The notes beneath the pieces were generated by a model. The model ran no database searches and was not told the origin of the DNA. It worked only from the letters and a program-made list of their open reading frames with translations. Position numbers and translations under genes: made by a program. This document shows, piece after piece, positions 6,955-61,201 of a stretch of 61,234 nucleotides of DNA (positions within the stretch are counted from its first letter, which is position 1; each line of letters opens with the position of its first letter). The stretch lies in the sequence record DRR378314_843. One strand, 5' to 3'.

Positions 6955-7302
6955 CTATTTCAGTTCGAGCATGGTCTCGATCGGGCGACCAAGCGCAGCT
7001 TTCTTGCCCTTTATCAGGATCGGTCTCTGGATGATCTTCGGGTTCGCAGCCATTGCCGCGTAAATTTCGTCGTCCGTTGATGTCGCATCAATGCCAACAT
7101 CCGTCGCGTTCTTGTCGCGCAAAAAAGCGCGGGGCGAGTCAGCCCCGAGTTTCTTGGCGATATCTCGCAACTCGCTTTCGCCAAGCTGCTCTGATGCGTT
7201 CATGTATTTTCGGATCTCTGGATCAATGCCGTTCTCCTGCAGAAGGGCGAGCCCCTTTCGGGATGTGCTGCAGCCGGAATGGTGAAGATATGTGTAGGTC
7301 AT
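6955..7302 (-). CDS. ArsC/Spx/MgsR family protein
   Basis: HHSGCSTSRKGL and NPKIIQRPIL...LGRP motifs. Confidence 0.88.
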   Translation of the reverse strand: MTYTYLHHSGCSTSRKGLALLQENGIDPEIRKYMNASEQLGESELRDIAKKLGADSPRAFLRDKNATDVGIDATSTDDEIYAAMAANPKIIQRPILIKGKKAALGRPIETMLELK

Positions 7303-7357
7303 GTCGATGCCTGAATGCGTAAGTGTTTACCCTGAAACTACCCGATATCGTGGCGCA

Positions 7358-45412: not shown

Positions 45413-45546
45413 GCCATGCGGCTTTCAATTTGTCGGACAAGACATTATAAGGTTCCCAAGGTTTAAGGCACGTCCGAACCCGACCGCCCGGCACGATGTG
45501 TCGGGCGGCTGCATTTCTGGCGGCCATTTCATTCAGGGAGATCCCC

Positions 45547-46221
45547 ATGTCCGATATTCTGATGCCAAAGGCGACGGCCGTCTGGCTGCTCGACAATACC
45601 AGCCTCACCTTCAACCAGATCGCGGCGTTCTGCGGCCTCCACTATCTGGAAGTCAAAGGCATCGCCGATGGTGATGTTGCCGAAAACATGCGCGGCGTGG
45701 ACCCGATTGCCGGCGGCATGCTGTCCCGCGAGGAAATCCGCCGCGGCGAGGAAGATGACGGCTACACGCTGAAAAAAGCGGCCTCCAAGATCGCCCATAT
45801 CCCTCAGCCAAAGCGCAAGGGCAGCCGCTACACGCCGGTTATCCGCCGTCAGGACAAGCCGGACGCCGTGGCCTGGTTCATTCGTAACCACCCGGAAGTC
45901 TCCGATGCGCAAATCTCCAAACTGATCGGCACCACCAAGTCGACCATCAACAATGTGCGCGACAAGAGCCACTGGAATTCGGCCAATATCCGTCCGGTTG
46001 ACCCGGTGACGCTGGGCCTGTGCACGCAAATCGAGCTGGACGAAGTGATCGCGAAGTCCGCTGACAAGCGTCGCAAGCTGGAAGCGGAAAAAGCCGAGAA
46101 ATTCGAAGGCCCCGGCCTCGCCCCGGCCCAGGATGACGCCGCGGCCTATGAATCAGACGACAGCGACAGCACGTCCAATGACGATGTGTCCGCCGACGAC
46201 ATCTTCAAGAATTTCAGCTAG
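45547..46221 (+). CDS. trcR: DUF1013 family cell-cycle regulator TrcR
   Basis: LMPKATAVWL, IADGDVA, RYTP, LIGTTK and DPVTLGLCTQ motifs. Confidence 0.88.
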   Translation: MSDILMPKATAVWLLDNTSLTFNQIAAFCGLHYLEVKGIADGDVAENMRGVDPIAGGMLSREEIRRGEEDDGYTLKKAASKIAHIPQPKRKGSRYTPVIRRQDKPDAVAWFIRNHPEVSDAQISKLIGTTKSTINNVRDKSHWNSANIRPVDPVTLGLCTQIELDEVIAKSADKRRKLEAEKAEKFEGPGLAPAQDDAAAYESDDSDSTSNDDVSADDIFKNFS

Positions 46222-46246: not shown

Positions 46247-46275
46247 AAAGGCCGGCCACTGAGCTGGCCTTTTTT
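46247..46275 (+). terminator. Intrinsic terminator after trcR
   Basis: AAAGGCCGGC-CACTGA-GCTGGCCTTT followed by TTT. Confidence 0.8.
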
Positions 46276-46362
46276 GTTGGGGGCAACTTGTCCCTGTCCA
46301 TGTCTGCCTCGCCGGAAAGGCGACGTGTGTGGATTAGGGCTTGCCCTCTCCTCCCGCAGGCC

Positions 46363-46376
46363 CCTGCGCAGGCAGG
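46363..46376 (+). repeat. Left target-site duplication CCTGCGCAGGCAGG
   Basis: Identical direct copy at 61156-61169. The exact length (10-18 bp) is ambiguous because of the G/C runs; it is 14 bp if the TIR starts with GGGG. Confidence 0.85.
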
Positions 46377-46393
46377 GGGGTATAGTGATGTCT
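46377..46393 (+). repeat. Left terminal inverted repeat GGGGTATAGTGATGTCT
   Basis: Perfect reverse complement of 61139-61155. Extends imperfectly to 28 bp (24/28 match). Confidence 0.92.
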
Positions 46394-46432
46394 TGAAGAA
46401 AATACATTCACGTAGTCTGTTGAAGTTCAGTT

Positions 46433-47011
46433 TTGGGAGTTGAAGGAGAGTTGGCTGATATGGCGGAAATAACAGGTGTATTCCCGTACAACTGTGATGC
46501 GGACACCCTACGGGCTATTAACTTCATTTCATCTCGAGAAGCGGATGCAAATTCCCGCATTATTTGGCTGTATGAAGGGCCTGACTGTCGCATTTGCAGT
46601 TCACTCCCCAATCAACTTACACTCAGCGCCAAGCCTGTTGGTATCTCACAGTTTTGCTGTATGACGCCCAACACGCGTGCTGACGTTCAGCGCGAAATTG
46701 ACCGCTTGTCCACGACCTACGATCGGATTTTCCTATTGTTCGCGAACGCCCTTAACGAAGAAGATGTTGCGTCTGCCCCCATCATGGACGGCGCCTTGGT
46801 CATCGCGAATACCGAGCCAGGTGTGGTCTGGAGCGCTATTGGATTGATTGGAAAACTCCACGCATGGCAGGCGGCTTTGACGCAAGAACTTGTATTACTC
46901 ACATCAGACGATGTGTCCGTTGCGATGCAGACATATCAGTCGATGCAGAACCTTGAAATGAAGGCACTCCCACAGCCATTCCCAAGCCTCTATGGCATGC
47001 TTGCGATCTAA
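46433..47011 (+). CDS. Hypothetical casposon cargo protein
   Basis: 192-aa ORF just inside the left TIR (ATG at 46460 is an alternative start). No motif recognised. Confidence 0.5.
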   Translation: MGVEGELADMAEITGVFPYNCDADTLRAINFISSREADANSRIIWLYEGPDCRICSSLPNQLTLSAKPVGISQFCCMTPNTRADVQREIDRLSTTYDRIFLLFANALNEEDVASAPIMDGALVIANTEPGVVWSAIGLIGKLHAWQAALTQELVLLTSDDVSVAMQTYQSMQNLEMKALPQPFPSLYGMLAI

Positions 47012-47045
47012 ATCCGCCAGACACTCGATACTGTTCCGAAACCTC

Positions 47046-49562
47046 TTATTCCGTTCGTCTTAAAGCGTTTTCAATTGAGGTCACCTTATCTCGGTGCCCC
47101 TTTTTGGAGTAGTAACTGAGCGCGTTCTTCAAGAGGTTCTGTCCCTCAATGCGTAGATCTTTGTCTTCACTTGCAAGGTGCGCATTCAGCACAGCGATCC
47201 CGGCATTGTGTTGGGTCACCGCTATTTCCGATGGCAGGTCGGGCTTCTCAATCGAATTGAAATTCGCCAGCCCACTGAGTATGTTTCTGTACAAATCTAT
47301 TGCCCTTTCGAGATAGGAGAAATCCTGCGTTACATCCTCAAGCATTTGTAAAGCATAAGCGAGATTCCGGCTCCAAATAGCGCGGTCGTACGCATCTTCG
47401 TCAGCAACAAGAATATCAAGTGACTGTTCATACTCGAGGACAGCTTGATTAAGCATCTCCTCAGACCGCTTCAGAACGCCAACACTTCTGAGTGCGTTCC
47501 CCAAGTTGTTACGGGTCATGGCAATCGGTTTGAGAGAGGCTTTGTTCCACAAACTGATGGATTCTCGAAATGCCAAAATGGCCTGCTCCAAACTCTCGAT
47601 ATCTTTGCGCGTTTCACCAATGCGCAGACTTGTATTACCTATGTTATACAATACTCTGGCCGACTCTTCTGATTGCTGCATTGTTCTGTACAATCCCAGC
47701 GCCTGCTTTAGCAGAGCCAGTTCCGTGATCCAGTCGGCCGTTTGCTGTTTAAATTTTGCCCAAGATTCCAACGCGACCGCTAGGCACAAAGAATATCGTT
47801 TCCACACTCCAGGAGTGGATTTTTGATCCACTGGCTCAAGCGCAGCTCGATATGTTTCGCACGCCTGCATGAAATCTGCATCCTGCTGTGTTTGCAATGC
47901 ACGCGCCTGGAATGCAGTCCCTAAGTTAAACATGGTAAACGCCCAGTCTCTAGGCCCGCTACTCCTGCCTCGTTCAGCTAGCACCTCCCTGTACCCCGAA
48001 ATAGCTAAGTCAATTTTAGATAGATCATTTTCATACTCACCTAAGCGCGCAAGTGCGTTGGATAAGTTCATCTGTGCCGTTTGACGATCAAATCTAATTT
48101 CATCGGAGCACGGTGCTTTTAAGGTCTCTTCGTAAGCGCGACACGCCGCATTCAGGAAGTCGCAGTTCCGGGTCATCTCTCCAACTGCGGTAAATGCATT
48201 TCCCATATTGGTCATTATGTCGAACCAAATCTTCTTAGAACTGCTCATATCCGAAGTGGACAAAGCCGCCTGGAAGCAATCAATGGCTTCAATGATATAC
48301 TGCAAGTCATGGGTGCTTCGCCCTTTGAACAGCAGAGCTATGCCGAGTGCATTTTGTGTCGATGCCCACTCATCCGTTTGTTCATCGTCCATAAGGCTCA
48401 GGGCCTCACGATGTGCGTCAATCGCTTGATCCAATTTTTGTGGGTCGCCCAACGCAGTGCTCAAACTCGAGAGTACTAATCCGAGATTGTTCAGCGTTCC
48501 AATACGAGTCTTAATTGGAAGACCATTTGACTGTTGATAGAGTAGGTGTCGATAGCCCTCAACTGCGGCAAGATGAAACCTCACCGCTCCTAGTTTGGCG
48601 CCTAATTCAAGTAGTGCGTTTGCGGCTACTCCAATCAATTCAGGGTTCGCCTTATTTGAGATAGGTGCCTCTCTTAGGGAGATTCTCAGCAATTCGTTCT
48701 GAGCATTCAAAGCGCCTCGTTGTGCAATTTGGTGCAAAGTAGCTATTGCAGCTTCAACTTCGTCCGAATTCCCCTCTCGTAGAGTCGTTCGGATCCTCCT
48801 TAGATCACGCCCAGAAGTTCTGCGGCGGAAGACTGAAACAAGTCGAAAAAGGCTTGTGATCAACAATAAATCCAAAAAAGCACGGAATACGAAGTTCAAC
48901 GTCTTCCCCGCACCTCCACTCGCTTCAAGCCCACTGATGTTCCGGATTCCATACACTTCAGATGCATCCACCATTGGCACAGCTTTCAGGATCTCGCCCC
49001 AAATGTAGGTGGCGGTTGTCGCCACAGGAAAAACAGCTTGCCCCTGATAAATTTCGCTTTGTTCCGAGAGCCGTGAAAATCCGAGAGTGAAAAACACGAT
49101 CAAGAAGATAAGACCGACGATGATTTCATTTCCCAGATCATTCGCGGCTGGCACATCCTGACCATTGTCTTCTGCAATTTGTCGTTCCTGCTCATCGTGT
49201 TCCCAAGTGCGATAGATCGCCAACACACCTAGAATGCCAAAGAACACAGCCCCTATGGCAGCAAACACGGGTGCAAAAATAGCTATCGCCGTAAGAGCTA
49301 GGAAAATGCCGACAAAACTGGACCAGCGATAGATTGTCTTTTTGAAGCCAACTCCGGTCATTGGCGCAATAAACTGGACCAGTATGCGATCGATGCCCCG
49401 GAAGAAGGGGATCAGTGCATGGTTCAAAAGGGGCTGTCCCACAAGCCGGAACACAAAGAACACTACCAGCCCAACGAGAACGGCTATTCCACCAGCCACC
49501 ACGCCATTGGTGAGCGGGTCGATCGCGTGATCGATTGCAGCCTGCAGCCAGTCTGGTGACAT
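47046..49562 (-). CDS. Membrane protein with a large C-terminal TPR array
   Basis: N-terminal hydrophobic helices, then repeats TLNNLG, WASTQNALG, IMTNMGNAF, AQMNLSNAL, WAFTMFNLG, VLYNIGN, AMTRNNLGNAL and TQHNAG. Confidence 0.85.
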   Translation of the reverse strand: MSPDWLQAAIDHAIDPLTNGVVAGGIAVLVGLVVFFVFRLVGQPLLNHALIPFFRGIDRILVQFIAPMTGVGFKKTIYRWSSFVGIFLALTAIAIFAPVFAAIGAVFFGILGVLAIYRTWEHDEQERQIAEDNGQDVPAANDLGNEIIVGLIFLIVFFTLGFSRLSEQSEIYQGQAVFPVATTATYIWGEILKAVPMVDASEVYGIRNISGLEASGGAGKTLNFVFRAFLDLLLITSLFRLVSVFRRRTSGRDLRRIRTTLREGNSDEVEAAIATLHQIAQRGALNAQNELLRISLREAPISNKANPELIGVAANALLELGAKLGAVRFHLAAVEGYRHLLYQQSNGLPIKTRIGTLNNLGLVLSSLSTALGDPQKLDQAIDAHREALSLMDDEQTDEWASTQNALGIALLFKGRSTHDLQYIIEAIDCFQAALSTSDMSSSKKIWFDIMTNMGNAFTAVGEMTRNCDFLNAACRAYEETLKAPCSDEIRFDRQTAQMNLSNALARLGEYENDLSKIDLAISGYREVLAERGRSSGPRDWAFTMFNLGTAFQARALQTQQDADFMQACETYRAALEPVDQKSTPGVWKRYSLCLAVALESWAKFKQQTADWITELALLKQALGLYRTMQQSEESARVLYNIGNTSLRIGETRKDIESLEQAILAFRESISLWNKASLKPIAMTRNNLGNALRSVGVLKRSEEMLNQAVLEYEQSLDILVADEDAYDRAIWSRNLAYALQMLEDVTQDFSYLERAIDLYRNILSGLANFNSIEKPDLPSEIAVTQHNAGIAVLNAHLASEDKDLRIEGQNLLKNALSYYSKKGHRDKVTSIENALRRTE

Positions 49563-49669
49563 TTAGTGCTCCAAGAGATGTCCCCTTCGACCAGCATCTA
49601 CAGACAATCCAGAATTGCAACCCGATAGCTAAATTTACATCGCTGTTTGAGAGGCACGATCGCTGAGAC

Positions 49670-52384
49670 CTAGAAGAGTTGAGCCACTGCACTTCTGACA
49701 GGGTCACATTCCCCAAAGTCGCCAACCTTGTTAGCTTCCTTTCCAATCAGCTGAATTCCCAAAACCCGAATATGCCGGCGAGATGTCTCTCCAGCATCAA
49801 ATGGTCTCCCATTCTCGAATTTGTCTTCCGGGCTAAGATGATAGAGCGCCAACACCTCCGCGTATGTTTTGAGCGCTTCGATTGAAACCGGCTCACCCGT
49901 CTCACGGCAAAAGGCTGAAGCAGCCGCAACATCGGGATCACGCTCAAATGGCGCGATCGGCTTAAAGGTTTTCGCCTTGTTGGGCCGTCCGCGCTTTGCT
50001 GGATCGACGTCATCTATTTGGACATCAGCAAACACGCCTGTACGCGCGACCGGGGCAACCATAAAGCCGTACGGTTTTACTTGATCACAATACAGCTTTC
50101 CCTGGTTGAAGCGTTTCATCCAGGCGAGCAATGCAGGACTTGTGGCGACATAACGGATCATCGCAGGTTTTTTCAGAGATGGGTGGTAACTAAGCGGGGC
50201 TTGGTTCGGATACCGATCTAGTGCGGCTTTGATAATGTGATACCAAAGATCGTACTGCCAACGCTTCACACCGATCTCCGCAAGAGACGCGCTTGGCGCT
50301 GGAATTCCACGGGCGGGATCATCTTCATCGTAGGGCTCCATTAAATGTCCCAACCCATGCGCAGAAGCCTTACGGATAATCGGATGGCTTTCGGCATCAA
50401 GGTTGAACAAGGCGTAGCGCTTTGCTGAAATCGCCCAGCAATAAAGAGGTTCTGAGAAATCCGAATTGGGAAGGTAGTTCACATCTTCGACCTGAAGAAT
50501 CGAACCAGGCTTGTCGTAGGGATTAAGTGTCGCAAACCAACAAACTACGCGCTTGGCGCGGTTGTGAAATTCCTCGCGCGAAATACCGTCCGGACGCGCA
50601 AGCGCAATACTGTCGGTATCGCAGAACGCCCATCCTAATCCTTGATCAGCAGCAACACGCTCAGCGCACGCCAGCATCAGCCTTGCTGTTCCAGTTATGA
50701 GCGCAGCCAGCAATGGATTGAAGAACCTGCCAGGCTCTTCGATGGCGGTCGTAGAGCAGGTGAATGGTTCACCACCCGGTCCGTAGACTTCGAGTACTTT
50801 CGGCTTGGGGTGATCATCACGGATCACTTCGGCATACACGCCATAGCATGTGGAGTTCGCAAGGATCTTCAGACGCTTCTCTATCGGGTCCTTTCTAGCC
50901 TTGGCTTCATCCCGCATGTTAATGAGCGATACGAACATATCCTGCGTTTCTGGATCTATTTGATAGTCGGTCCTGCCCAGAAGGTTGATGGGCATCAAGC
51001 CTGTTTGCTTTGCTCCCGGCTTGAACCCAATTGCGCATTCGATCTTCGGCACTTTGCCGGTCAATATCTTTGACGCGATAAGGTCCGAAAGCGTGTACCA
51101 AAGCGACTTGTCAGAATGAACGTTGTTCAGTCCAATCGTCAGATTGTCCTTATCCGGTGAATAGTTTGCTCTTAGTGGAAGTGCATCGCCATTTGGCTTG
51201 AGCTGAACGATTGCGTGAAGTGAGAGCCAGGTTTCGGGTCGCTGGAGATCCCCAGCGTCGATATTCTCCAACAGTAAGCGTACATCCTCGGTTGCATCAT
51301 AGGTTTCAAACGTTTCCGCAATCAGGAACTTGTGTAACCCAAGCAGCGCGTTGACCGTTGGGTACATCGATTTGAAATCGCAATAGACCACTTCCTGGAC
51401 CTTGCGGCGTATCCGTATCTCAGCCCTCCCCCCATAGTATGAAGCCATGATGCAGCCGAACACCGCAGGATCGAGGTTCCCCCACCCATCATAGCGCAGG
51501 GGTTTGATGTTCATCTGTTTGAGCAAAGCCTTACCTATACTTGCCTCACTCAAGATTCGATGTAGCGGCGTATCAAGTTCAAATTCTGCGTACATCTTCG
51601 AGAGCGCTTCGAAACACTCCCATGTCGTTTGAACGTCGGCGCGTGCGTAATCCAGGTATGCGAATGTAATCGGCCCGCCATGTTCCTTCGTCTCGAGTTT
51701 TTGTGATTTGGTTTGCAATCGCTCCGCCAGCGCCTTCAGGGAACCGCGAAACGTCAGCAATGCAGCGGCCATCGTCTTCACGTCGAAGAAAGCACCGCGA
51801 TTGTGATTAGCCTGGAAACCACGCTTGCGCATGCCCCGCCCGACAAGCTGCTTACCTGGTTTGGAAAAGTCGATGAGCGAGGCGCTCGAGTTCAGGTGTT
51901 TGACACGGATGTTTGGTTCGCTCTTCCATTCGGATAAGGGGAACGTGAACCCTCCACGCATGCTGCCGCGCGCAATACCAGCGCCAAGCGCAATACGGGC
52001 AATATCGAAGGGTAAGTTGAACCCAATGATCGACCCGTTTCCGCGGTATCCGATCTTTAGAAGGATCTCTTCGCGGAACTGTTTAAGTGTTATCAACTCC
52101 AATCCATTCGCAGCACAGTACGCCCGGACAGTTTCCAGGTCTGCGGCGTTGAGATCGTCCGCAACGAAAATGTACTCGCGAACCAGTTTTCCGCTTTTAC
52201 GGAACTGGCACACACCAACCCGTAGCTTCTGCACCGCATCGATGGTCGTCTCAGTATCGAAGATGATCTGCCAATCCGAAACGACCTCCGGTTTACTGAA
52301 CTTGGCGATCTCGGAGAGTGGCCGCTTGTCTGGTCTCTGACTGAACGCACGGACCGCGGCATTCACGTTGAGGGTCGAAGTCAT
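49670..52384 (-). CDS. polB: Family B DNA polymerase with a 3'-5' exonuclease domain (casposon PolB)
   Basis: ExoI FDTET, ExoII FNLPFD and ExoIII YARAD; YYGGRAE; motif A DFKSMYP; motif B KILANSTCYG; motif C CDTDS; SAKRY. Confidence 0.93.
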   Translation of the reverse strand: MTSTLNVNAAVRAFSQRPDKRPLSEIAKFSKPEVVSDWQIIFDTETTIDAVQKLRVGVCQFRKSGKLVREYIFVADDLNAADLETVRAYCAANGLELITLKQFREEILLKIGYRGNGSIIGFNLPFDIARIALGAGIARGSMRGGFTFPLSEWKSEPNIRVKHLNSSASLIDFSKPGKQLVGRGMRKRGFQANHNRGAFFDVKTMAAALLTFRGSLKALAERLQTKSQKLETKEHGGPITFAYLDYARADVQTTWECFEALSKMYAEFELDTPLHRILSEASIGKALLKQMNIKPLRYDGWGNLDPAVFGCIMASYYGGRAEIRIRRKVQEVVYCDFKSMYPTVNALLGLHKFLIAETFETYDATEDVRLLLENIDAGDLQRPETWLSLHAIVQLKPNGDALPLRANYSPDKDNLTIGLNNVHSDKSLWYTLSDLIASKILTGKVPKIECAIGFKPGAKQTGLMPINLLGRTDYQIDPETQDMFVSLINMRDEAKARKDPIEKRLKILANSTCYGVYAEVIRDDHPKPKVLEVYGPGGEPFTCSTTAIEEPGRFFNPLLAALITGTARLMLACAERVAADQGLGWAFCDTDSIALARPDGISREEFHNRAKRVVCWFATLNPYDKPGSILQVEDVNYLPNSDFSEPLYCWAISAKRYALFNLDAESHPIIRKASAHGLGHLMEPYDEDDPARGIPAPSASLAEIGVKRWQYDLWYHIIKAALDRYPNQAPLSYHPSLKKPAMIRYVATSPALLAWMKRFNQGKLYCDQVKPYGFMVAPVARTGVFADVQIDDVDPAKRGRPNKAKTFKPIAPFERDPDVAAASAFCRETGEPVSIEALKTYAEVLALYHLSPEDKFENGRPFDAGETSRRHIRVLGIQLIGKEANKVGDFGECDPVRSAVAQLF

Positions 52385-52758
52385 TGGCCCGCCTCCCCAT
52401 CATAAGGGAGCACATGCTCTGATTGCTCTAGCAGCCACTCTCCGAACTGTGCGATCGTTTCCGTAATCCGCCGAAACCATTCCGCCAATGCCAGAAGGTA
52501 ACGTCCGATGGTTTCCATTTGTGGATTCTCAGACTGGGGCGCATATGCGAAGTCTTTCTCGATATCGCTCAATTCGCGGTGACAATTCGAGCACAGAACT
52601 CCGCCATCATCATGAAACTTGCGCGGAGCGATGTGCGCAAACTCCAGAGCAGCAGGGTGGTTCATATACCCGCAACACTGACAAATCGGATTGCGGGTTC
52701 GCAACCTTCTGTAGTCGCTTTCGCGGCGCAATTCTTCAGGGCTAATAATATCGTCCAT
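52381..52758 (-). CDS. HNH endonuclease-like zinc-binding protein
   Basis: CQCCG...EFAHI...LCSNCH. Its stop overlaps the polB start (ATGA). Confidence 0.8.
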   Translation of the reverse strand: MDDIISPEELRRESDYRRLRTRNPICQCCGYMNHPAALEFAHIAPRKFHDDGGVLCSNCHRELSDIEKDFAYAPQSENPQMETIGRYLLALAEWFRRITETIAQFGEWLLEQSEHVLPYDGEAGQ

Positions 52759-52770
52759 AGTAGGATCCTT

Positions 52771-53349
52771 TCATTGGACAACGACACGATAGATTTCATG
52801 GAAAAGCGGCTCATCCTTGAGCGCGAAGCGGATCAAGGCGTTGGGGTCGGTTTCGAACGGCCACGCCGTGCCATTGATGTCAGTCACGGTCGCGCCGTCG
52901 AACTCTTCGAGGTGAGTGAGGTCTTGCGTCAGGATGAATTGACGAACACGATTGTGGTAAACGCCAACGCGGCTCGCATCAGCAAACGTTGGAACAGTGA
53001 TCGCCTTGGAGTTCGCGCCAACAATGATCTGCACCCGGCGCGGACGGGCATCAGTGACAATCCAGCGACGCCCTTCCTTGACGCCGAGTTTCTTTGCGAC
53101 GAGGGCCCGTTTCAGTCGGTCCGGTGAGACATGAGCCGCTTTTGCCGCTGCCGTCAGCGACGTTCCGCCGTACATGGCCTGCAATGCCTGGGAGACGCTC
53201 TCGTCATTTATGGGCAGGCGAGCGCTCGCTTTGAGAGGGGCTTCACTAGGTTTCGGGTGGCCACGAGCCTGAGAGAGGGACAGACCACGCGCCTTGCCGC
53301 GCGCAATGCGGCGGGCGTACTCGGCTTTGTAGTCTCTCTTCTTGGCCAT
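52771..53349 (-). CDS. Putative DNA-binding protein (basic N-terminus plus HTH)
   Basis: MAKKRDYKAEYARRIARG...SQARGH, then an HTH-like GTSLTAAAKAAHVSPDRLKRAL. First gene of the polB operon. Confidence 0.7.
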   Translation of the reverse strand: MAKKRDYKAEYARRIARGKARGLSLSQARGHPKPSEAPLKASARLPINDESVSQALQAMYGGTSLTAAAKAAHVSPDRLKRALVAKKLGVKEGRRWIVTDARPRRVQIIVGANSKAITVPTFADASRVGVYHNRVRQFILTQDLTHLEEFDGATVTDINGTAWPFETDPNALIRFALKDEPLFHEIYRVVVQ

Positions 53350-53408
53350 TGTCCGGGCTCCAGTTCAAACGACTGAAAACCGGCATGACTCCGAAGGCAG
53401 GGACTCTT

Positions 53409-53485
53409 CATCCAATTCGGATAGGAAACAGAAATGTAATCTCTGCGACGCCTTGGTCTGCGACTTGCATCCAATTTGCGTAGGA
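53409..53485. promoter_or_regulatory. Pair of 18-bp repeats in the divergent promoter region (candidate operators)
   Basis: CATCCAATTCGGATAGGA (53409-53426) and CATCCAATTTGCGTAGGA (53468-53485) match at 15/18. Each is an imperfect dyad TCCAA-N6-TAGGA. Confidence 0.45.
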
Positions 53486-53505
53486 TTTGTAAACCGGGTG
53501 TCGCT

Positions 53506-54414
53506 GTGAATAAAGCCGAGCTTCTGGACGCACTGGCTGTGAAAGCTGCCGAGCATGGCGTTGAACAGCCAAGCGAGGCCAAGCTTGAAAGCTGGGTGAG
53601 CAAAAAGCTTGTGACCGGCGCTAAGCCCAAAGGTCAGAAGCGTGCGGTGGCACCTAAGTGGTCCTATTCAGATGACAGCATCGAACGCTGCCTCGCTTTA
53701 GTGGCCATGGAGGCGAGAGGATTTAAGCGCAAAAATCAAATGCGTTTGGGTCTGGCTGCTGAAGGCTTCGATATCGATCCTACGCAATTAAGAGAGAGTC
53801 TGGAACTAGAAGCAGTTCGATCCATCAAACGCATGCGTCGTGACGGTCTTCGCAACTTTGTGCCGAGCGATCACCCAGACGATTTCGCGAAATTAACGGT
53901 TGCGCAGAGACGACTGACTTCCGAAGTGGATCCGCGGCTGAATGAGACCGGGTTTGTACTACCGCCCGCTCTTATGATTGCTGCAATCAATTCTGCAATG
54001 AGTGGGACCAGCGAAAATCCGCTACAGACGACTGAACTTCAAACAGACGTCGAACGCCATTTGAATAAGGTCTTTCCAAGCGGATTGCCGTTTGATCTTA
54101 CGCAATTGCCTCTGCTCATTATCCCGACTTTGATGGCGGGCATTCTCGGCATCGAGGATGAAACAGATCTGGCGTTGGCCAATCGCGTTCGGAACGCGAC
54201 CGATGCGCAACTGCTTGCCGCCGTCGAAATGTTTCGTCAGCTGAGACAGGTGTGTGAAAGTTCGGGGGAGTTTGCTCAAGCTTTTCCAGAGCCAACTCCA
54301 ACTATTCTGAAGAGCGTATTTGCCGATCCGAATTGGCTACCGCTGATGCTGAGTTTGTCGATTTCAATTCCCAATCCCGCATCGAATTCCGATGCGATTT
54401 TTGCTATAATTTAG
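53506..54414 (+). CDS. Hypothetical protein with a MerR/excisionase-like N-terminal winged HTH
   Basis: SEAKLESWVSKKLV...KG...WSYS pattern. GTG start at 53506 is inferred. Directly upstream of cas1. Confidence 0.6.
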   Translation: MNKAELLDALAVKAAEHGVEQPSEAKLESWVSKKLVTGAKPKGQKRAVAPKWSYSDDSIERCLALVAMEARGFKRKNQMRLGLAAEGFDIDPTQLRESLELEAVRSIKRMRRDGLRNFVPSDHPDDFAKLTVAQRRLTSEVDPRLNETGFVLPPALMIAAINSAMSGTSENPLQTTELQTDVERHLNKVFPSGLPFDLTQLPLLIIPTLMAGILGIEDETDLALANRVRNATDAQLLAAVEMFRQLRQVCESSGEFAQAFPEPTPTILKSVFADPNWLPLMLSLSISIPNPASNSDAIFAII

Positions 54415-54434
54415 CAGTAGATATCGGGGGCAAA

Positions 54435-55538
54435 ATGACACTTCAAACGCAAAGCGTTTCGGATGAAAACGCATATGACGAGTGGGCTGTCAGAAGCCAG
54501 TATTGGCAATCCGAATACAATTCTAGCCTACCGAAACGCAAACGCCGCGAACGCCAATCAAACCCGCTAATTTTAACTGGCTATGGTCTGTCTATCCGCG
54601 TCGACAAAGGTCGACTGGTCATCAAGGATGGGACAACTCACTTCCCTCAAGATCGGCGAGAATACGTATTCTTTAAAGGCAGTCTCGATATTCCACCCCG
54701 AATTATCGCGCTCGATGGTTTTGGGACAATCACACTCGATGCACTGGACTGGCTGGCAGAACAGAACATCGCGCTTATTCGAGTTAAGTGGAATGGGCAG
54801 TTCTTCTCGCTCATCAGCAATGGGGGGCAAGCTGCCGATCCGGAAAAGTTTACCTGGCAGATTAAGGCCCGAGAGGATGAGAGCGAAAAGTTAGCATTCT
54901 ATCTGCCGCTAATGGAAGGCAAGTTCTCCAATACGCTTGGAACTTTAGCCGACTACCTCCCACCATCCGCCGCCAAAGAAAGAGCGATTGAGAAGGTTAG
55001 GCATTATTTGCACCGCCTACAGAATGACCCACCAGATAAGTTGAAGATGTTGCTGGGCATCGAAGCACAAGTCGCCAGCCTGTACTTTGCTACATGGCGT
55101 GAATTGAAGATCAATTGGAAATCCAGCAAGCGCTATCCAATCCCGGACGAGTGGAAGAGTTTCTATTCGCGTGGGTCGCTGAAGATGATGAATAAAGGTG
55201 GCGCGAACATCTTCGCAACGCATCCGGTCAACGCGATGTTGAATTATGTCTATACTGTATTGCTTGGGCAAACACAGTTGCAGGTGATTGCCGACGGTTA
55301 TGATCCGATGCTCGGGGTGATACACACGCGTTCACGATCACAACACGGCCCACCGCGCCCAAGCTTTGCGATTGACATGATGGAGCCGATGCGGCCCGTG
55401 GTGGATCGCGTAGTATTGAAGCTTATTGCGGAAGAGACGTTTTCAGGGGCGGATTTTGATTTGCAGAGGGATGGGGTGGTGCGGGTGAATCCGGAACTAG
55501 TGCGAAGCCTTAGTCGACAAATAATTGCTGACGGGTAG
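54435..55538 (+). CDS. cas1: Cas1 integrase (casposase), solo
   Basis: LTGYGLSIRVDKGRLVI N-terminus; LLGIEAQVASLYF (Glu), PVNAMLNYVY, GYDPMLGVIH (His) and IDMMEPMRPVVD (Asp/Glu). ATG at 54435 follows a GGGGG RBS. Confidence 0.95.
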   Translation: MTLQTQSVSDENAYDEWAVRSQYWQSEYNSSLPKRKRRERQSNPLILTGYGLSIRVDKGRLVIKDGTTHFPQDRREYVFFKGSLDIPPRIIALDGFGTITLDALDWLAEQNIALIRVKWNGQFFSLISNGGQAADPEKFTWQIKAREDESEKLAFYLPLMEGKFSNTLGTLADYLPPSAAKERAIEKVRHYLHRLQNDPPDKLKMLLGIEAQVASLYFATWRELKINWKSSKRYPIPDEWKSFYSRGSLKMMNKGGANIFATHPVNAMLNYVYTVLLGQTQLQVIADGYDPMLGVIHTRSRSQHGPPRPSFAIDMMEPMRPVVDRVVLKLIAEETFSGADFDLQRDGVVRVNPELVRSLSRQIIADG

Positions 55539-55560
55539 ATCGAAATCACTTCTTTGGCAC

Positions 55561-58500
55561 TTACGAAATTCCCGGCTTGTTTTCCTGGGAAATACGCTCT
55601 TCAGCTTCGCGATCAGCCCATCCTTGGTCGCTCTTCGCTATCGAACGCAACAAAGACTGCGTATGCGGAAAATCATCTAGTTCATCTGCCCATTGCCCAA
55701 ATTTTGCAGCGGACTTGGCGTAGTAGTCTTCCATCGGGCCCGAAATCACACCACGAGAATTGAATTGTCCCGTGCGCATGGCAGAGATCAGTCGTTCACG
55801 TGGATGTGCTTCTATCACTTTTCGAACGGCCGCATGAGGCCAAATGTGATCTGTAGGATCGACCGGCGACTTTGATAGCAGCTGACCGACAGCTATCGAG
55901 GCTCCTTTTTCGAACTGCTTTTCACGTGCAATCTCAAACACCTTCTCCACCCATACCGTCAGCTTCTCTTCGTCGACGCCCCCCTCGTTCGATCCAGGAA
56001 TCACGTTCATATTTTCCATGACGTGAAAGGCTGGCCGCCAGATACCCTCGTCGGGCTGATCTTCTTCAGAGGAGTAAGCGACACCACTTTCGTCCTTAGG
56101 GGCGTCATCTCGCTTATACAAAATTGGAATTAAATCGAAAAATTCTTCAGGCTCCTCCGCAAGGAACCTGTAAAGCGCAGGGGCTCGTTCCGGGCCGTTG
56201 AAACGAAGCGCCTCAGCCAACGGAAATTCGAGCTTTGCAAGCTCGCTCAAACTCAAAGCACCGCGGTCCTCAGCGACTCCTAGGAGTTCCCAGTAGTGAT
56301 ACAACTCAAGCTGCCCTCTAGGCCGTCCCTCACTATAAGCGTTCGAGACACTTTTTAGGTACTCGTTCGCGATTAACCGAACAGTTTCGATTGGCACCGA
56401 GGGATCGTTCGCCACGACATGCGCTAAATCGTGGATGCGGCCCACGCTTTTGAACCCGTCGACAACGGCTTGCGAAAGGTTTTCGCCAACGAATGAGTAT
56501 GCATTGGCTGATCTCCAAAATCCTGAAGATACTTGCGGTGGTAATCCCCCAGTTGTCGCGGCATCCAGAATTGGGGGCGCGTTGTAGAGCCCTTCCCCAA
56601 CTAACTCGCTGAGGTGTTTAGAGAAGGCGTCAGCCTTAGAGTTGATAATAGCAACCCATTCGGCTGGATTTTTTATGGCAGCTCCTCGGGACATTCCTCG
56701 GATGAGTTCTTGGCCCTGCTCATCGTCAGACGATATCGTTAAGATGTGATCCATAATTGCGGAAGAATTGGGGGTGGCTTGGGCTAACGCTATTCCAGCG
56801 GCAAAAGGCGATCCCACTTTTTGCAAGAAGTCTGAAAGCTCATCTGCGTACTTGTTGAGTATGCCTTCAAGAGCCAGCCTTCGGTGTTCAGCCAAATCGC
56901 TTTGCGGATCATCAGTTCGCTCGCGAAATGTCTCGACCCAGCTCGATTTAAACAGCCATAGATATCGATTGGAGTTATCTGGTTGAAGTCTTTCGAATTC
57001 GACCTCCAACTGACTTAATCGTTCATTCTCAATCGCCCACTCAGCATCGGAAAACTGACGATGGCGTCCGGTGAATGTTCTCAACGCTTCGAGCAATTCG
57101 TCCACGCCGGTGTCATCGCCATTTATGCTGGATATCTGCGCAACAAATCGGTCGAAGATTTCGTTCACCATGGAAGGCACGCATTCTACCAACTTTGCCA
57201 GGTCAGCGGCGTTTGTCGAAGCAACACGGATGGCTTGTTCAACCGCTTCATCACGGACTTCGTAAAAATCGCCCCAAGTTAGGCGTTGCTCCTGAACCCT
57301 TGAGAAAATTGGTTTGCTAGTGCTCAGCACAAAGCGCCCGCCTCTATTGTCCAGAAGAGGAACTAGCAGTTCTAAAACGTGCGGGCCGAATTCGTTTGCT
57401 AGATCGCGAATGATCTTCGCCCTTTGCTTTGTTCCCGCAACTGTTTGAGGCACGCCAAAGGAGAGAATTCCTTGAAGCGAGGCTAAGGGCTGATTTCCTT
57501 GTTTCTCGTCGATTGGGGAGACAGCCAAATGAAGCTTCATCAAGAGCCGACAAACAAGCTCTACATGCTCGGACAACCAGGCGAGGCGTTCGAGGGCCCA
57601 CAAAAGAGACGCCCCCAAATGAAAATCTATGAAACTAAACTTGGACTCTTGCACTTTAAAGACTGCGGCCATTCCTTCGGCGTTCCCCTCGATGGCCGCT
57701 TCGAGGGACTCCAGAAAAGGCTGAGGAACACCTTCAGCGAGTAGAGGCAACCATTCTTCGATGGCAGCACCAAATTTGGGGTTATCCAGAAGCTGAGGAA
57801 CGCTCGTTTGATAGACGCTGCGACACCAATCAGCACATTTCTGTCCGTGAGGACGAAGACTCAAGTCGGGGTCTTCGCCAAATACCCCGATCAAAACAAA
57901 GGTAAGTATCACCCCACCGACAAAGTCACTGCTGAAACCGGAATATTCTGAAGGGTCGAAAACTCGATCTCTATCTGCACCCTGCTGAACTTTATCGTTC
58001 AACACTACACAGAGTAGATTCTCGAAAGCGTCGTAGTCGTCGTCAGTGTAATAGCGCGCAAGCCTAAAAAATGCGTCGACTGGTCCATTCAGCGTTACGA
58101 TGCTAGTCGTTGCAACAAACATGGGGTCTGCCGAACCAGCTCGGGCCAGCGGATTCCGTCCGTATTTGCGAACTATCGACTCGATCTGTGAATACGTTTC
58201 AACACCTGCGTGTTGCTTTAGCGCTTCAACATCTTTGTACATAAAGTTGCTCTTAGCTCCGTGCTTGCCTCGCTCTTCACGTCGGACAGCTCGACTTATG
58301 TTCCAAGCAGCAACCATTCCAAGGCGTTTGAGAAGTGGGGCGTCCGTTAAATCTGGATCAGCCCATGGGCATTTCTCCCCTTCGACAGTACCTCTAAGCC
58401 GTTCCAGTGCAGACAAATTTCTCCCGGCCGCTTTTGCAATGGTTTCGGCGCTCTGCGAACCAACCGGTTTGATATGTTTTGCGAATGTCGACACATCAGG

Positions 58501-59451
58501 TCGTTGAAGCAAATAGCAACTCGCTAGACCGGGATCGGACGAAATAGCTTTTGCAACCAAAACCGAGTGTTGCTCCAAACGATTAGGATAAGCCGCCGCT
58601 TCTCCTTCGAGGATTACAATATGTCGAGTTCCAACCTTTTTGAGTAGATTCAATCCTGCTTCGTTTTGGATGCAGACGACCGGAAAATGCTCTAGTTCTG
58701 GAGAGCTCAAACATAGTTGGCAAGCTGCGACGGCTGCCTCTCTGTCTGAATTCCCAAGCAAGTAGCTAATCGGTTCTTCTCTCAGGAGAGCATCTCTTAG
58801 TTCGAGCAGTGACTTTTGTCCGTCCAGTAGAATATCCGGCGAGACTTCGTCACGGAAACGGCGCTTCCAGAGGCCGATACGCTCTTCGGCGGAACAGACC
58901 CCGTACGCAGCTGCGCTGGGAATCAACCCGAGTTCTTGAAGCAACCATAAACACGTTTCGACATCTCGATTTACCCAGTCGATTAATCGAGACTGGTCAA
59001 AAAGCACGACCTTCTTAAACTTGGTGTCATCGGTAGCTTTCTGCTGCCAGAATACTTTCTTCTTTTGATCTTTTGTTTCGACTTCGATTTCGCCCGACCA
59101 AGTAGCGCGCCCAACCATCACAAATGCAAAGTCGTCTGGCTTTTTCAGGGACTCTTCAACCCGCTTCAGCTCGTATTTCGCTTTGCCCACCAGGTCAGTT
59201 CGCGAAGATGTGGCGCCGTATTCGATGCAAACATTTCCCGCTGGAATACCTTCGCATTCTTCATCGAGCGTAACGACGCCATCGAAGCCCGTGACTCGGT
59301 AGTTTTCGCCGTCGACAGTGTAGGCGTTCGCGACCTTGATACCTCCCGTCGATATGTTGAGTAAGCGCTTGAAGAGCTCGGGAAGAAGTTTTTCCCAATC
59401 TGGATTTTTTTCGGTAGATTCGAAATGCGTCTTTTCAATTAGTCGAGCCAC
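55561..59451 (-). CDS. Large (~1300 aa) uncharacterised cargo protein with a possible N-terminal restriction-endonuclease-like domain
   Basis: N-terminal GFDG...P.G...E.G...KA motif, helical body and C-terminal WP...VR...FNSRGV block. GTG start at 59451 follows GGGAG. Confidence 0.75.
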   Translation of the reverse strand: MARLIEKTHFESTEKNPDWEKLLPELFKRLLNISTGGIKVANAYTVDGENYRVTGFDGVVTLDEECEGIPAGNVCIEYGATSSRTDLVGKAKYELKRVEESLKKPDDFAFVMVGRATWSGEIEVETKDQKKKVFWQQKATDDTKFKKVVLFDQSRLIDWVNRDVETCLWLLQELGLIPSAAAYGVCSAEERIGLWKRRFRDEVSPDILLDGQKSLLELRDALLREEPISYLLGNSDREAAVAACQLCLSSPELEHFPVVCIQNEAGLNLLKKVGTRHIVILEGEAAAYPNRLEQHSVLVAKAISSDPGLASCYLLQRPDVSTFAKHIKPVGSQSAETIAKAAGRNLSALERLRGTVEGEKCPWADPDLTDAPLLKRLGMVAAWNISRAVRREERGKHGAKSNFMYKDVEALKQHAGVETYSQIESIVRKYGRNPLARAGSADPMFVATTSIVTLNGPVDAFFRLARYYTDDDYDAFENLLCVVLNDKVQQGADRDRVFDPSEYSGFSSDFVGGVILTFVLIGVFGEDPDLSLRPHGQKCADWCRSVYQTSVPQLLDNPKFGAAIEEWLPLLAEGVPQPFLESLEAAIEGNAEGMAAVFKVQESKFSFIDFHLGASLLWALERLAWLSEHVELVCRLLMKLHLAVSPIDEKQGNQPLASLQGILSFGVPQTVAGTKQRAKIIRDLANEFGPHVLELLVPLLDNRGGRFVLSTSKPIFSRVQEQRLTWGDFYEVRDEAVEQAIRVASTNAADLAKLVECVPSMVNEIFDRFVAQISSINGDDTGVDELLEALRTFTGRHRQFSDAEWAIENERLSQLEVEFERLQPDNSNRYLWLFKSSWVETFRERTDDPQSDLAEHRRLALEGILNKYADELSDFLQKVGSPFAAGIALAQATPNSSAIMDHILTISSDDEQGQELIRGMSRGAAIKNPAEWVAIINSKADAFSKHLSELVGEGLYNAPPILDAATTGGLPPQVSSGFWRSANAYSFVGENLSQAVVDGFKSVGRIHDLAHVVANDPSVPIETVRLIANEYLKSVSNAYSEGRPRGQLELYHYWELLGVAEDRGALSLSELAKLEFPLAEALRFNGPERAPALYRFLAEEPEEFFDLIPILYKRDDAPKDESGVAYSSEEDQPDEGIWRPAFHVMENMNVIPGSNEGGVDEEKLTVWVEKVFEIAREKQFEKGASIAVGQLLSKSPVDPTDHIWPHAAVRKVIEAHPRERLISAMRTGQFNSRGVISGPMEDYYAKSAAKFGQWADELDDFPHTQSLLRSIAKSDQGWADREAEERISQENKPGIS

Positions 59452-59711
59452 GTCCGCTCCCTGATTTAGCCACACGTTGATTCGGTATCACTTGTGCTCA
59501 ATAGAGCAACATCATTTGTCCATCGCGGCAAATCAGCTCTTCCTGGCAGTTCGGCGTGCCGCACAGGTCCGTGTAACTGACTCAAGAAGCGCAGTGCACA
59601 TAGCATCGGCTTGGAACTCCTCGAAAAATCCACGCGACCCTATTTGCTTTAAAGTATGAATTGGGCTTTTTCTGTTTCTCACCGATGGTGTTGGGGAGTT
59701 TTTGAAGGGAA

Positions 59712-61130
59712 TTGAGACTGTTGGACAATGGATTCAGTGACGATGTGCCGGAAAGGTTCACGCCTAGCGAACGAAACGTTGCGACCGCACTTTTTTCGAG
59801 TGGAGTATATTCCTTCGCAGAATGGTCATCCGTGGTGGATCGCGAACTGAGTAGCGACTTCTTGCTATGGATGATTTCCGATCAAACCATTTCGCATCCG
59901 GTCTTGTGCATCGAACGCGCAATATTTCCCGAGGATGTAACATTGCGTGCCTACAGGAGCGAGAAACACTTTGAGTTTATTGATTGCAGGTTTCACGGCA
60001 AACTAGACTTCCGCCACATCCGACTACGGCAACTTGTTTTAAACAAGAGCGAATTCAAACAAGCCCTACGATTGAATGGTGCTCAATTGTCTCGCGGCAT
60101 CATCGCAAATAATGCGAAATTTGAAGAGTTGGTTCTTCAAGCAGCAGAGTTAGATGGCAACCTTGAACTAAGTGGCTCAAAGGTAAACCGGCCAATACGA
60201 GCATATCAGCTCCAGGTGAAAAAAAGTCTATTCATCCGAGACGGTGCCGAAATAAATGGCGCAAATCTAATTGGCGCTACCATCGGCACTCATTGCCAGT
60301 TCAGGGCAGCGACGATATCGGGCAATTTAGACTTAACAGGAGCTACGGTTCGCGGAGAGCTCCAGTTCGGGCACCCAGACTACGAAGCAATTCGATGGAT
60401 TGAGAATGCCGAACTATCACTTCGTAATGTAAAGGCCCGGTTCTTTGGCGCGCAACTCCGAGACTTTCAAATAGGCAGAGACTACATCCCGGCTGATCTT
60501 ACAGGATTGAGTTTTGAAGAGTTTGCTAGAGTTGGAGACTCGAACACGTCATCCATCGCCAACGAGCCTGCGCGCTCAATTCTAACTTGGTTAAAATACT
60601 CTGCGAAAAAGCGGACACGTTTCGATCCAAGGCCATATTTAACGGTGGCTAACGCTCTAGAACGAGCAGGCGAGTTGAGAACGGCTAAGAAGATCAAGAT
60701 TGGTCTAGGATGGAAAGATACGTTCCGGTCAAATTCTCCACCGCTTACGAGAATAGGTAAGATTCTGTCGGGCCTTTTCATTGGTTTCGGCCATGCTCCA
60801 TCAAGAGCTCTAAGCCTGTTCTTCTTACTCCTCGGCCTAGGTTTTCTCCACGGCTACCTTCTTATGTCCGAGGGTAAGTTCGATTGGATCGGCTCAGAAA
60901 AGTCGATCGCTGCTGTCCGCTTGTCACTTGAAAACTCAGCACCGCTGATTGCCTTCAACAACGGTGTGGAAACGAGCGGATGCTCAATTCATCAGGATCA
61001 AAATTGCATTCCTCTAAATGAGATTAGCGCTTTGCTCTTTGATGTACAAAAGGTGTTGTCGTTGGTGTTAGCCAGCTACTTCATCGCCGCAATTACCGGG
61101 TTCGCCTCGGTCAGTGCTCGCCGAGAATAA
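59712..61130 (+). CDS. Beta-helix/pentapeptide-like repeat protein with a C-terminal membrane (channel-like) domain
   Basis: Repeats LRLNGAQL, LELSGSKV, ANLIGATI and LDLTGATV; PYL.VA..L...G; GFGHAPSRAL followed by TM, SLENSAPLI and a second TM. Confidence 0.75.
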   Translation: MRLLDNGFSDDVPERFTPSERNVATALFSSGVYSFAEWSSVVDRELSSDFLLWMISDQTISHPVLCIERAIFPEDVTLRAYRSEKHFEFIDCRFHGKLDFRHIRLRQLVLNKSEFKQALRLNGAQLSRGIIANNAKFEELVLQAAELDGNLELSGSKVNRPIRAYQLQVKKSLFIRDGAEINGANLIGATIGTHCQFRAATISGNLDLTGATVRGELQFGHPDYEAIRWIENAELSLRNVKARFFGAQLRDFQIGRDYIPADLTGLSFEEFARVGDSNTSSIANEPARSILTWLKYSAKKRTRFDPRPYLTVANALERAGELRTAKKIKIGLGWKDTFRSNSPPLTRIGKILSGLFIGFGHAPSRALSLFFLLLGLGFLHGYLLMSEGKFDWIGSEKSIAAVRLSLENSAPLIAFNNGVETSGCSIHQDQNCIPLNEISALLFDVQKVLSLVLASYFIAAITGFASVSARRE

Positions 61131-61138
61131 TTTCTGTC

Positions 61139-61155
61139 AGACATCACTATACCCC
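61139..61155 (-). repeat. Right terminal inverted repeat AGACATCACTATACCCC
   Basis: Perfect reverse complement of 46377-46393. Confidence 0.92.
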
Positions 61156-61169
61156 CCTGCGCAGGCAGG
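61156..61169 (+). repeat. Right target-site duplication CCTGCGCAGGCAGG
   Basis: Identical to 46363-46376. Confidence 0.85.
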
Positions 61170-61201
61170 GGCCCATCTCTGAAAGTTCGTCTCTCGCCAG
61201 T

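Follow-up and report, generated by a model that had tools for sequence, protein, structure and literature searches.

Probable casposon insertion at the apex of a REP-like palindrome and the GC-rich hairpin targets of related bacterial elements

The casposon and its insertion site

The window analysed here, which is the whole stretch of 61,234 nucleotides (nt) from sequence record DRR378314_843, carries a casposon, a mobile element with a Cas1-type integrase (casposase), and this text concerns the palindrome in which that element sits. The original prediction regarded the element as a casposon and its target as a palindrome with a 9-bp stem and a 4-nt loop, followed by CATCT and cut symmetrically, so that the duplicated segment is centred on the hairpin; the site was placed between genes, past the trcR terminator and outside a transfer RNA (tRNA) gene. 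All of this was borne out by the present analysis. The element has genes for Cas1 and a family B DNA polymerase (PolB), and it is bounded by terminal inverted repeats (TIRs) with a flanking target site duplication (TSD), which is the arrangement expected of a family-3 casposon; it also has a gene for a putative HNH-like endonuclease. Positions 46359-46380 of the window read GGCC CCTGCGCAGGCAGG GGGG, and the left junction as a whole reads GGCC/CCTGCGCAGGCAGG/GGGGTATAG, the right junction CTATACCCC/CCTGCGCAGGCAGG/GGCCCATCT. The exact 14-mer CCTGCGCAGGCAGG has only two copies in the window, one at each border of the casposon, and nothing else in the window fits CCTGC-N4-GCAGG (mean of 0.17 in shuffled sequences). 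Since the two copies carry the loop GCAG in one and the same orientation, the repeat is a direct duplication centred on the dyad and not part of an inverted repeat.

The symmetrical cut is supported by the centring of TSDs in related elements, described below, and by an empty site in a near-identical genome, G001. The corresponding locus (G001:C3, L001) reads GGCCCCTGCGCAGGCAGGGGCC, then CATCT, which is one intact 22-nt palindrome. The left flank of the window together with the repeat is identical to L001 19-1518 at 1484 of 1500 positions (98.9%), the repeat together with the right flank is identical to L001 1505-1583 at 77 of 79 positions (97.5%), and the two alignments overlap on L001 by exactly 14 nt. 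Folding of the target site as single-stranded DNA gives a stem of 9 bp closed by the 4-nt loop GCAG, at -13.1 kcal/mol (z = -2.6). The casposon inserted between genes, some 90 nt after the trcR terminator, and no tRNA gene was found when positions 40000-61234 of the window were searched for one. The target itself does not have the form of an intrinsic terminator: it is followed by CATCT and not by a T-run, and the terminator scan called only the terminator of trcR.

The combination of a palindromic target with a G-run at the end of the TIR makes the border between TSD and TIR ambiguous, and the maximal direct repeat at the casposon of the window is 18 nt long (46361-46378 and 61154-61171). However, the flanks of three related loci (L013, L049 and L051) do not continue the G-run, which shows that four or more G are part of the element and gives a TSD of 14 nt in the window. 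The features of the element and its surroundings are collected in table 1.

Table 1. Features of the casposon, its insertion site and the adjoining host sequence (positions in the window)
Feature	Position	Strand	Basis and remarks
trcR-like gene, host flank upstream of the insertion	45496..46221	+	Pfam TrcR, E = 1.1e-60
Terminator-like hairpin of trcR, unused by the casposon	46247..46272	+	Terminator scan: 10-pair stem, then T-run
Left outer arm (GGCC) of the palindromic 22-nt target	46359..46362		Unduplicated; partner in the empty site is GGCC 61170-61173
Left TSD copy CCTGCGCAGGCAGG	46363..46376		5-bp stem part, loop GCAG, 5-bp stem part; single in the empty site, L001 1505-1518
Casposon	46377..61155		14,779 bp; bounded by TIRs and TSD; absent at the G001 empty site
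Left TIR GGGGTATAGTGATGTC	46377..46392	+	Inverted repeat search; same terminus in related elements
Open reading frame (ORF), 192 aa, cargo	46433..47011	+	Without family (Pfam, NCBIfam, PADLOC); not kept in relatives
TPR-repeat protein, 838 aa, cargo	47046..49562	-	Pfam TPR_12, E = 6.9e-9; partial relative in G001 only
Family B DNA polymerase, 904 aa, core gene	49670..52384	-	Pfam DNA_pol_B_2 (PF03175), E = 7.9e-8, above cut-off; 19/19 related elements
HNH-like endonuclease, 125 aa, core gene	52381..52758	-	Pfam HNH_2, E = 0.0092, 16.3 bits, below the 21-bit cut-off; CxxC...CxxC in translation; 15/19 related elements
Conserved 192-aa core protein, possible helix-turn-helix (HTH) DNA binder	52771..53349	-	17/19 related elements; adjoins HNH and PolB genes
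ORF, 312 aa, few relatives	53476..54414	+	Without family; 85% identical in G110, weakly matched in G202 and G025
Casposase (Cas1 homologue)	54333..55538	+	Pfam Cas_Cas1, E = 8e-35; listed from TTG, likely start ATG at 54435
ORF, 1304 aa, cargo	55561..59475	-	Without family (Pfam, NCBIfam, PADLOC)
Pentapeptide-repeat protein, 472 aa, cargo	59712..61130	+	Pfam Pentapeptide_3, E = 1.4e-8
Right TIR (GACATCACTATACCCC on the + strand)	61140..61155	-	Complement of left TIR GGGGTATAGTGATGTC
Right TSD copy CCTGCGCAGGCAGG	61156..61169
Outer right arm GGCC of the target palindrome, then CATCT	61170..61173

Among solved structures, the nearest to the casposase is that of the Methanosarcina mazei enzyme, 6opm (E = 2e-20), in which chain residues 20-306 of 431 align with query residues 78-393. 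The casposase of the window has no C-terminal HTH; its Cas1 domain extends to residue 391 of 401, and the alignment with 6opm stops at residue 306 of the 431. It is 59% identical to the Cas1 of L014, from Hyphomonas sp. CY54-11-8, with which it shares a well-supported clade in a Cas1 tree that leaves out families 1, 2 and 4, and the casposon of that strain was named family 3 in Krupovic 2016. An HNH endonuclease gene is given for casposon families 2 and 3 in Krupovic 2014. Family searches of the casposon ORFs found no other cas family. The conserved 192-aa core protein, which has a basic N-terminus, matched no family in Pfam, NCBIfam or PADLOC, and its leads in the Atlas are HTH clusters with scores of 0.82-0.86, while scores below 0.9 are often reached by shuffled proteins too; it is a candidate end-binding or target-binding factor. 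The 1304-aa cargo ORF shares 90% identity over 1300 residues with a casposon gene of G044, whereas the Cas1 proteins of the two elements are 68% identical, which suggests exchange of cargo between casposons.

Dispersed palindromes and the targets of related casposons

The palindrome of the target had been proposed to be a dispersed sequence like the repetitive extragenic palindromes (REPs), and genome-wide copies were counted in G001, which is the nearest genome, and across the family to which it belongs, Hyphomonadaceae (262 genomes). G001 holds three exact copies of the 22-mer and one copy with two mismatches; the 14-nt core is found at 7-8 sites, two of which flank a casposon of G001 itself, and a longer unit of about 75 nt, with the palindrome inside it, is present three times. 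Across the family, the core CCTGCGCA(G/A)GCAGG occurs in 181 of the 262 genomes, with up to 33 copies in a genome (0-2 for the reversed pattern as a control), and its copies are often paired in opposite orientation, 68-69 nt apart (G001, G029 and G039). Of 21 palindrome copies that lie away from casposon junctions, 17-20 maintain each of the four stem pairs that flank the core, with two to three types of pair at pairs 1-3, that is, with compensatory changes, and only 0-3 show pairing at pairs 5-7 beyond the stem. Short flanks are kept among the same copies, tCCGnnG to the left and CCA to the right. The window copy, 22 nt long and intergenic, has the form of a short, imperfect extragenic palindrome of about 20-40 nt by which REPs are defined, but the copy number of classical REPs usually exceeds 100 per genome (PMC2817692) and that of the core is at most 33. 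Judged from these sequences, the palindrome is a dispersed, structurally constrained family that resembles bacterial interspersed mosaic elements (BIMEs) and whose copy number is well below that of classical REPs. The proposal thus holds for dispersal, inverted pairs and a covarying stem, and it does not hold for the number of copies.

A search against Rfam placed no RNA family in the repeat loci and gave only sub-threshold matches for the target, and a known RNA gene was therefore rejected as an explanation of the flanking repeat. The target of the casposon of G001 (L010/L012) has an unoccupied paralogue on C6 (L007, G001:C6:37248-38330), with flanks that are similar over more than 200 nt. 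This paralogue adjoins three more palindromes of the family and a small gene, the product of which we take to resemble GIY-YIG nucleases.

Cas1 homologues were detected in 25 of the 262 Hyphomonadaceae genomes and in two further genomes from a 401-genome sample of the class. In a first survey, which covered about 10 kb on either side of each Cas1 homologue and located the ends of elements through the terminus GGGGTATAG, or GGGGATAAGGG or GGGGAAATACTAAGGG, the reconstructed target was a hairpin in each of the 20 elements for which both ends were resolved. These hairpins have 7-14 pairs with at most one mismatch and loops of 3-5 nt. The centre of the repeat coincides with the centre of the hairpin in 14 of the 20 elements, lies within 1.5 nt of it in 17 and within 3 nt in all 20, and the larger offsets are all found at homopolymer runs. 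A uniform end finder that is blind to hairpins was also applied; it required direct repeats of 12 nt or longer, bordered on the inside by sequences that match as inverted repeats at 13 or more of 14 positions, and its scope was 70 loci of at least 8 kb, including 35 of 80 metagenome contigs with a Cas1 alignment. This search yielded 24 elements. The TSD is centred on a GC-rich hairpin of varying sequence in 23 of them, and the offset between the centres is exactly 0 in 16. For comparison, a hairpin of seven or more perfect pairs has its centre within 1.5 nt of just 0.225% of the positions in 443 kb of sequence. The TSDs of homologous casposons, collected without regard to hairpins as a check of the original prediction, are thus almost always centred on palindromes. 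Weaker candidates, with 10-nt repeats and 11-12 of 14 TIR matches, were taken as chance and are excluded by the stricter thresholds. Five loci whose ends were not found (L057, on a short contig, L079, L080, L081 and L083) were left out of all counts.

The same pattern is seen at single junctions. A perfect stem of at least 5 bp abuts the TIR in 39 of 52 distinct flanks, compared with 5.2% of 20,000 random 44-mers; L015 and L052 are one junction read on both strands and were counted once, and a match to the TIR pattern at window position 14044, which is no casposon end, was removed before the count. Three of the 13 flanks that fail belong to tandem arrays, seven carry imperfect hairpins (L056 and L117 twice each, L118, L119 and L106), one contains a long C-run (L054) and two show no evident hairpin (L055 and L104). 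GGGG begins 39 of the 40 ends displayed, and hairpins of 5-8 perfect bp are rebuilt at both junctions in most elements. If the GGGG terminus is assumed, TSDs are 13-17 nt long. The association with palindromes extends over three types of TIR and into another alphaproteobacterial family (G420).

The kinds of palindrome that are occupied differ between elements. Four independent insertions lie in the same core, CCTGCGCA(G/A)GCAGG: that of the window and those of G001 (C51 plus C24), G039 (L013) and G111 (L092, one end seen). A second dispersed family of targets, CTCTCCC-loop-GGGAGAG, has 12 sites in G025, 15 in G143, two in G031 and none in G146 or G200 (control 0). Other targets are a cluster of CCCGGC-GAAG-GCCGGG hairpins in G044 and terminator-like hairpins with A- and T-runs (L014, L053, L056 and L059). 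As both REP-like and terminator-like palindromes are used, the targeting concerns GC-rich palindromes as a class rather than strictly REPs. The suggestion that the casposase recognises a REP was consequently only half right: a REP-like core was used four times, but the preference is for GC-rich hairpins generally.

In the clade of the window Cas1 (7 rows, full support), all seven targets are extended hairpins with 4-nt loops and, given the GGGG terminus, 14-nt TSDs. Six of the seven fit CCNGC-N4-GCNGG, the target in G096 having CCAGT. This loose motif occurs at 328 sites in G001, and only 8 of 40 background sites have stems of at least 7 bp. The short motif was rejected as a sufficient signal, because it is too common and most of its sites are not hairpins; it is extended palindromy that matters.

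Three loci contain tandem junctions, in which a right terminus, 13-15 nt and a left terminus follow each other. At G001:C2:117102-117148 (L114 and L115; region 113650-117148) a single copy of CCGCGACGGCAGG, not a hairpin, is common to a 3.46-kb derivative that has no cas1 (113663-117118) and to a second element. The other two lie at G151:C4, about 385-425 (L116), and at G256:C14 (L117 2073-7150), where a 5.0-kb element is followed by a degenerate terminus. The idea of a repeat-insert-repeat arrangement analogous to spacer acquisition thus finds a counterpart in tandem arrays with one common repeat copy. Since the GGGG/CCCC termini rebuild hairpins, an occupied site would stay a hairpin and could be hit again, and tandem arrays would arise in this way.

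This bacterial group of casposons is far commoner than the few bacterial genomes in print indicate, and at least 557 of at least 597 pattern-matching metagenomic stretches encode relatives of the casposase. The terminus GGGGTATAGTGATRTC is present in 25 genomes, 15 of which have no Cas1 match at E <= 1e-20 (G027, G111, G140, G142, G150, G151, G162, G171, G215, G223, G224, G226, G231, G245 and G256); non-autonomous or decayed derivatives of casposons may be common. A different mode of insertion, possibly at a tRNA gene, is seen in L079 (G507:C4): its Cas1 homologue is more distant, with about 36% identity, and is flanked by long direct repeats (7082-7560 and 13518-13996; 173 nt and others) in which a tRNA-like T-arm motif occurs.

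Palindrome targeting and its possible mechanisms

Taken together, positions 46359-46380 are best read as the left junction of a recently inserted family-3-type casposon in the apex of a REP-like 22-bp palindrome, and as one case of a palindrome rule that applies to the whole group; we assign this reading a probability of roughly 80%. Several points weigh against it. The sole exception in the 24-element search, L199 (109-14347), has a non-palindromic TSD of 15 nt, CTATCCCGCCCAACC; this element carries the same GGGGTATAG terminus, and its Cas1 is the most distant among those with resolved ends (36% identity). The repeat of element A at G001:C2, CCGCGACGGCAGG, pairs only at its outer CCC/GGG, L104 and L055 are without a clear hairpin, and the targets in L056, L106, L117 and G150 are imperfect. 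The genomes compared are related and not fully independent, though each insertion is at a different locus. The border between TSD and TIR cannot be read from the sequence, and both the TSD lengths of 13-17 nt and the rule that the TSD starts with CC presuppose a GGGG terminus. The bias towards C-rich 5' arms is modest, as GC-rich background hairpins are themselves C-rich in 67 cases and G-rich in 30, and it was abandoned as a strong rule. Stem sequences diverge widely between casposases that are 55-74% identical. Finally, recognition of the palindrome by the family-3 casposase itself is something that we infer from sequences.

The likeliest mechanism, by analogy with a solved relative, would be a two-fold symmetric casposase tetramer acting on a symmetric target. 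The casposase would carry out two strand-transfer reactions symmetrically around the dyad of the palindrome, on opposite strands and about 13-17 bp apart, in GC-rich palindromes whose 5' arms would tend to be C-rich and whose 3' arms G-rich. The tetramer would clamp the duplex palindrome so that each dimer meets the same half-site, which in the clade of the window could be CCNGC, with CC directly after the cut. REP-like repeats and terminators would serve as safe intergenic landing sites, and the GGGG/CCCC termini of the element would rebuild hairpins of 5-8 bp at both junctions and keep the site usable. The complex of the M. mazei casposase with DNA is a pseudo-two-fold tetramer that clamps a duplex target, and a symmetrised 14-bp duplication was as good as the natural one for that enzyme (Hickman 2020, PMC6977970). 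The casposase of Aciduliprofundum boonei recognises its target in part by a CC that directly follows the upstream cut (Beguin 2019, PMC6614799); in the targets described here a CC would follow both presumed cuts, which fits.

The diversity of stems among similar casposases is awkward for a reading based purely on the sequence of half-sites, and it would be equally compatible with recognition of structure. The casposase could read an extruded cruciform or a single-stranded hairpin, for example at a replication fork, and cut at a set distance from the loop, which we consider rather unlikely but a serious alternative. E. coli Cas1-Cas2 integrates off-target near an inverted repeat capable of forming a cruciform (Beguin 2016, PMC5137440). 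Furthermore, the targets of the casposons are alike in shape and not in sequence, with stems and loops that differ in nearly every element; complementarity reaches variable stem positions outside the TSD, and TSD length varies between 13 and 17 nt under a fixed GGGG terminus. However, stems of 7-10 bp with loops of 3-5 nt are short for cruciform extrusion, TSD lengths of 14-16 bp equal those of casposases that act on duplex targets, and neither L199 nor element A at G001:C2 has an inner hairpin. The solved casposase complex contains a duplex target (PMC6977970), and a palindrome alone is insufficient for the A. boonei enzyme (PMC5137440).

In systems such as Tn7 the target is chosen by an accessory protein, TnsD. 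If the same were true here, Cas1 would only catalyse the reaction, and the candidates for the accessory role would be the conserved 192-aa protein (52771-53349) and the HNH protein. Both genes recur in most of the 19 related elements (table 1), the casposase differs from family-2 enzymes in having no C-terminal HTH, the N-terminus of the 192-aa protein is basic and its Atlas leads, though weak, are to HTH families, and cooperation of this kind between conserved casposon genes is proposed in Krupovic 2014. Nevertheless, a family-1 casposase that also has no HTH is site-specific alone (PMC8464041), the elements of G146 and G200 sit in hairpins and have no match to the 192-aa protein, and Atlas scores below 0.9 are of a size often reached by shuffled proteins. 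Target choice by an accessory protein is therefore regarded as improbable.

The remaining two explanations do not withstand the data. Random insertion followed by survival only in harmless intergenic hairpins, such as terminators and REPs, would agree with the fact that all insertions seen are intergenic, where hairpins are typical, and with the description of family 3 as intergenic in Krupovic 2016, but it is effectively refuted by the centring statistics, because selection cannot centre a TSD to the nucleotide and the offset is 0 in 16 of 24 elements against the background of 0.225% given above; in addition, the element of the window skipped the trcR terminator 90 nt away, and four independent insertions share one 14-nt core. 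That the palindrome is part of a long TIR with no target duplication, to which the detected inverted repeat of 46 nt (palindrome and flanks included) and the duplications overlapped by TIRs and palindromes inside TIRs noted in Krupovic 2014 could point, is refuted because the empty site in G001 retains one complete palindrome, and besides, the loop GCAG, which is asymmetric, points the same way at either end and the same TIR abuts unrelated palindromes in other genomes.

Relation to CRISPR repeats and to other systems

The target had been likened to the core of a repeat of the CRISPR type (short palindromic repeats, clustered and regularly interspaced), but this likeness is generic to any GC-rich hairpin and was given up. 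Among CRISPR direct-repeat families the best match for the target is CRISPR-DR28, with 13.7 bits against a gathering threshold of 35 bits (E = 5.4). Nor is there the form of a CRISPR array, in which unique spacers of about 30 nt lie between direct repeats at regular distances: the two copies in the window are 14.8 kb apart, and elsewhere the copies are single or in inverted pairs. The adaptation module of CRISPR has been proposed to descend from casposons, and the finding bears on the proposal that the CRISPR repeat derives from the preferred target of a casposase (Hickman 2020, PMC6977970). It provides a natural precedent, across a whole bacterial branch, for a palindromic repeat that flanks an insert made by a Cas1-type enzyme. 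To our knowledge, every casposase target characterised so far is asymmetric and lies at the end of a tRNA or aEF-2 gene. Bacterial casposases might thus have a native general preference for GC-rich hairpin palindromes, with rebuilt hairpins leading to arrays; if such a preference were ancestral in Cas1-type integrases, the palindromy of CRISPR repeats would be inherited from a REP-like casposon target and not from TIRs or from later selection for the processing of CRISPR RNA (crRNA). We put this forward as a tentative and, on balance, unlikely extension. The group also offers a directly testable system, which consists of a small casposase without HTH, a 16-nt end and a 22-bp target.

The family-2 casposons of A. 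boonei and M. mazei share with the window group a Cas1-type integrase, PolB, HNH (putative in the window element), short TIRs, TSDs of 14-15 bp, site preference and tandem arrays, and their TSDs begin with motifs (CC in A. boonei and CGCA in M. mazei) that recall those of the window group. They differ in that they target tRNA genes at the 3' end, where a leader-like motif lies upstream, their TSDs are asymmetric and their casposases have a C-terminal HTH. The window group, by contrast, uses naturally symmetric palindromes of many sequences; there is no tRNA gene at the insertion in the window and no HTH in its casposase.

Published family-3 casposons (HenMar-C1/C2, HypCY54-C1 and others) represent the same type of element in the same group of hosts, L014 being from the HypCY54-C1 strain. 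They are described as lying in intergenic regions (Krupovic 2014, Krupovic 2016 and Beguin 2019, PMC6614799), and Krupovic 2014 remarks on the frequent overlap of TIRs with duplications and on palindromes within some TIRs. Palindromic targets would give exactly such an apparent overlap of TIR and duplication, which offers an explanation for the earlier remark. For A. boonei, the tRNA-palindrome model is taken up again in a 2023 review, the consulted sections of which say nothing on family-3 targets. No description of palindrome-centred casposon insertion was found in the literature on casposon targets, including casposase papers since 2022, with supplementary lists of duplications outside this coverage, and raw TSD data may already be in print with no palindrome reading attached.

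Some insertion sequences (ISs) target REPs (ISPpu9, ISPpu10, ISPsy8, ISPa11, ISRm19 and ISRm22; Tobes and Pareja 2006, PMC1525189), and like the window group they use dispersed extragenic palindromes as safe sites. Their duplications are short and each of them is tied to one REP family, whereas the window group has a Cas1-type integrase, TSDs of 13-17 bp across the apex of the hairpin and many different hairpins. IS1397 and ISKpn1 are further REP-targeting elements, and the transposases of REP-targeting ISs are unrelated enzymes of the DDE type; the casposases add a further class of transposase to the mobile elements that target REPs. Class C group II introns insert after terminator hairpins and resemble the window group in that a stem-loop motif rather than one sequence is the homing signal. 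They differ in being RNA-based retroelements and in inserting downstream of the hairpin and not in its apex.

A further parallel is spacer integration by Cas1-Cas2 into CRISPR repeats. On the one hand, the integrases are homologous, two staggered attacks take place at the borders of an often palindromic unit that is then duplicated, and the product has the form repeat-insert-repeat. On the other hand, the window group lacks Cas2 and a leader and does not form arrays of short spacers, its inserts measure 5-15 kb, and the duplicated unit is 13-17 bp long, compared with 24-47 bp in CRISPR.

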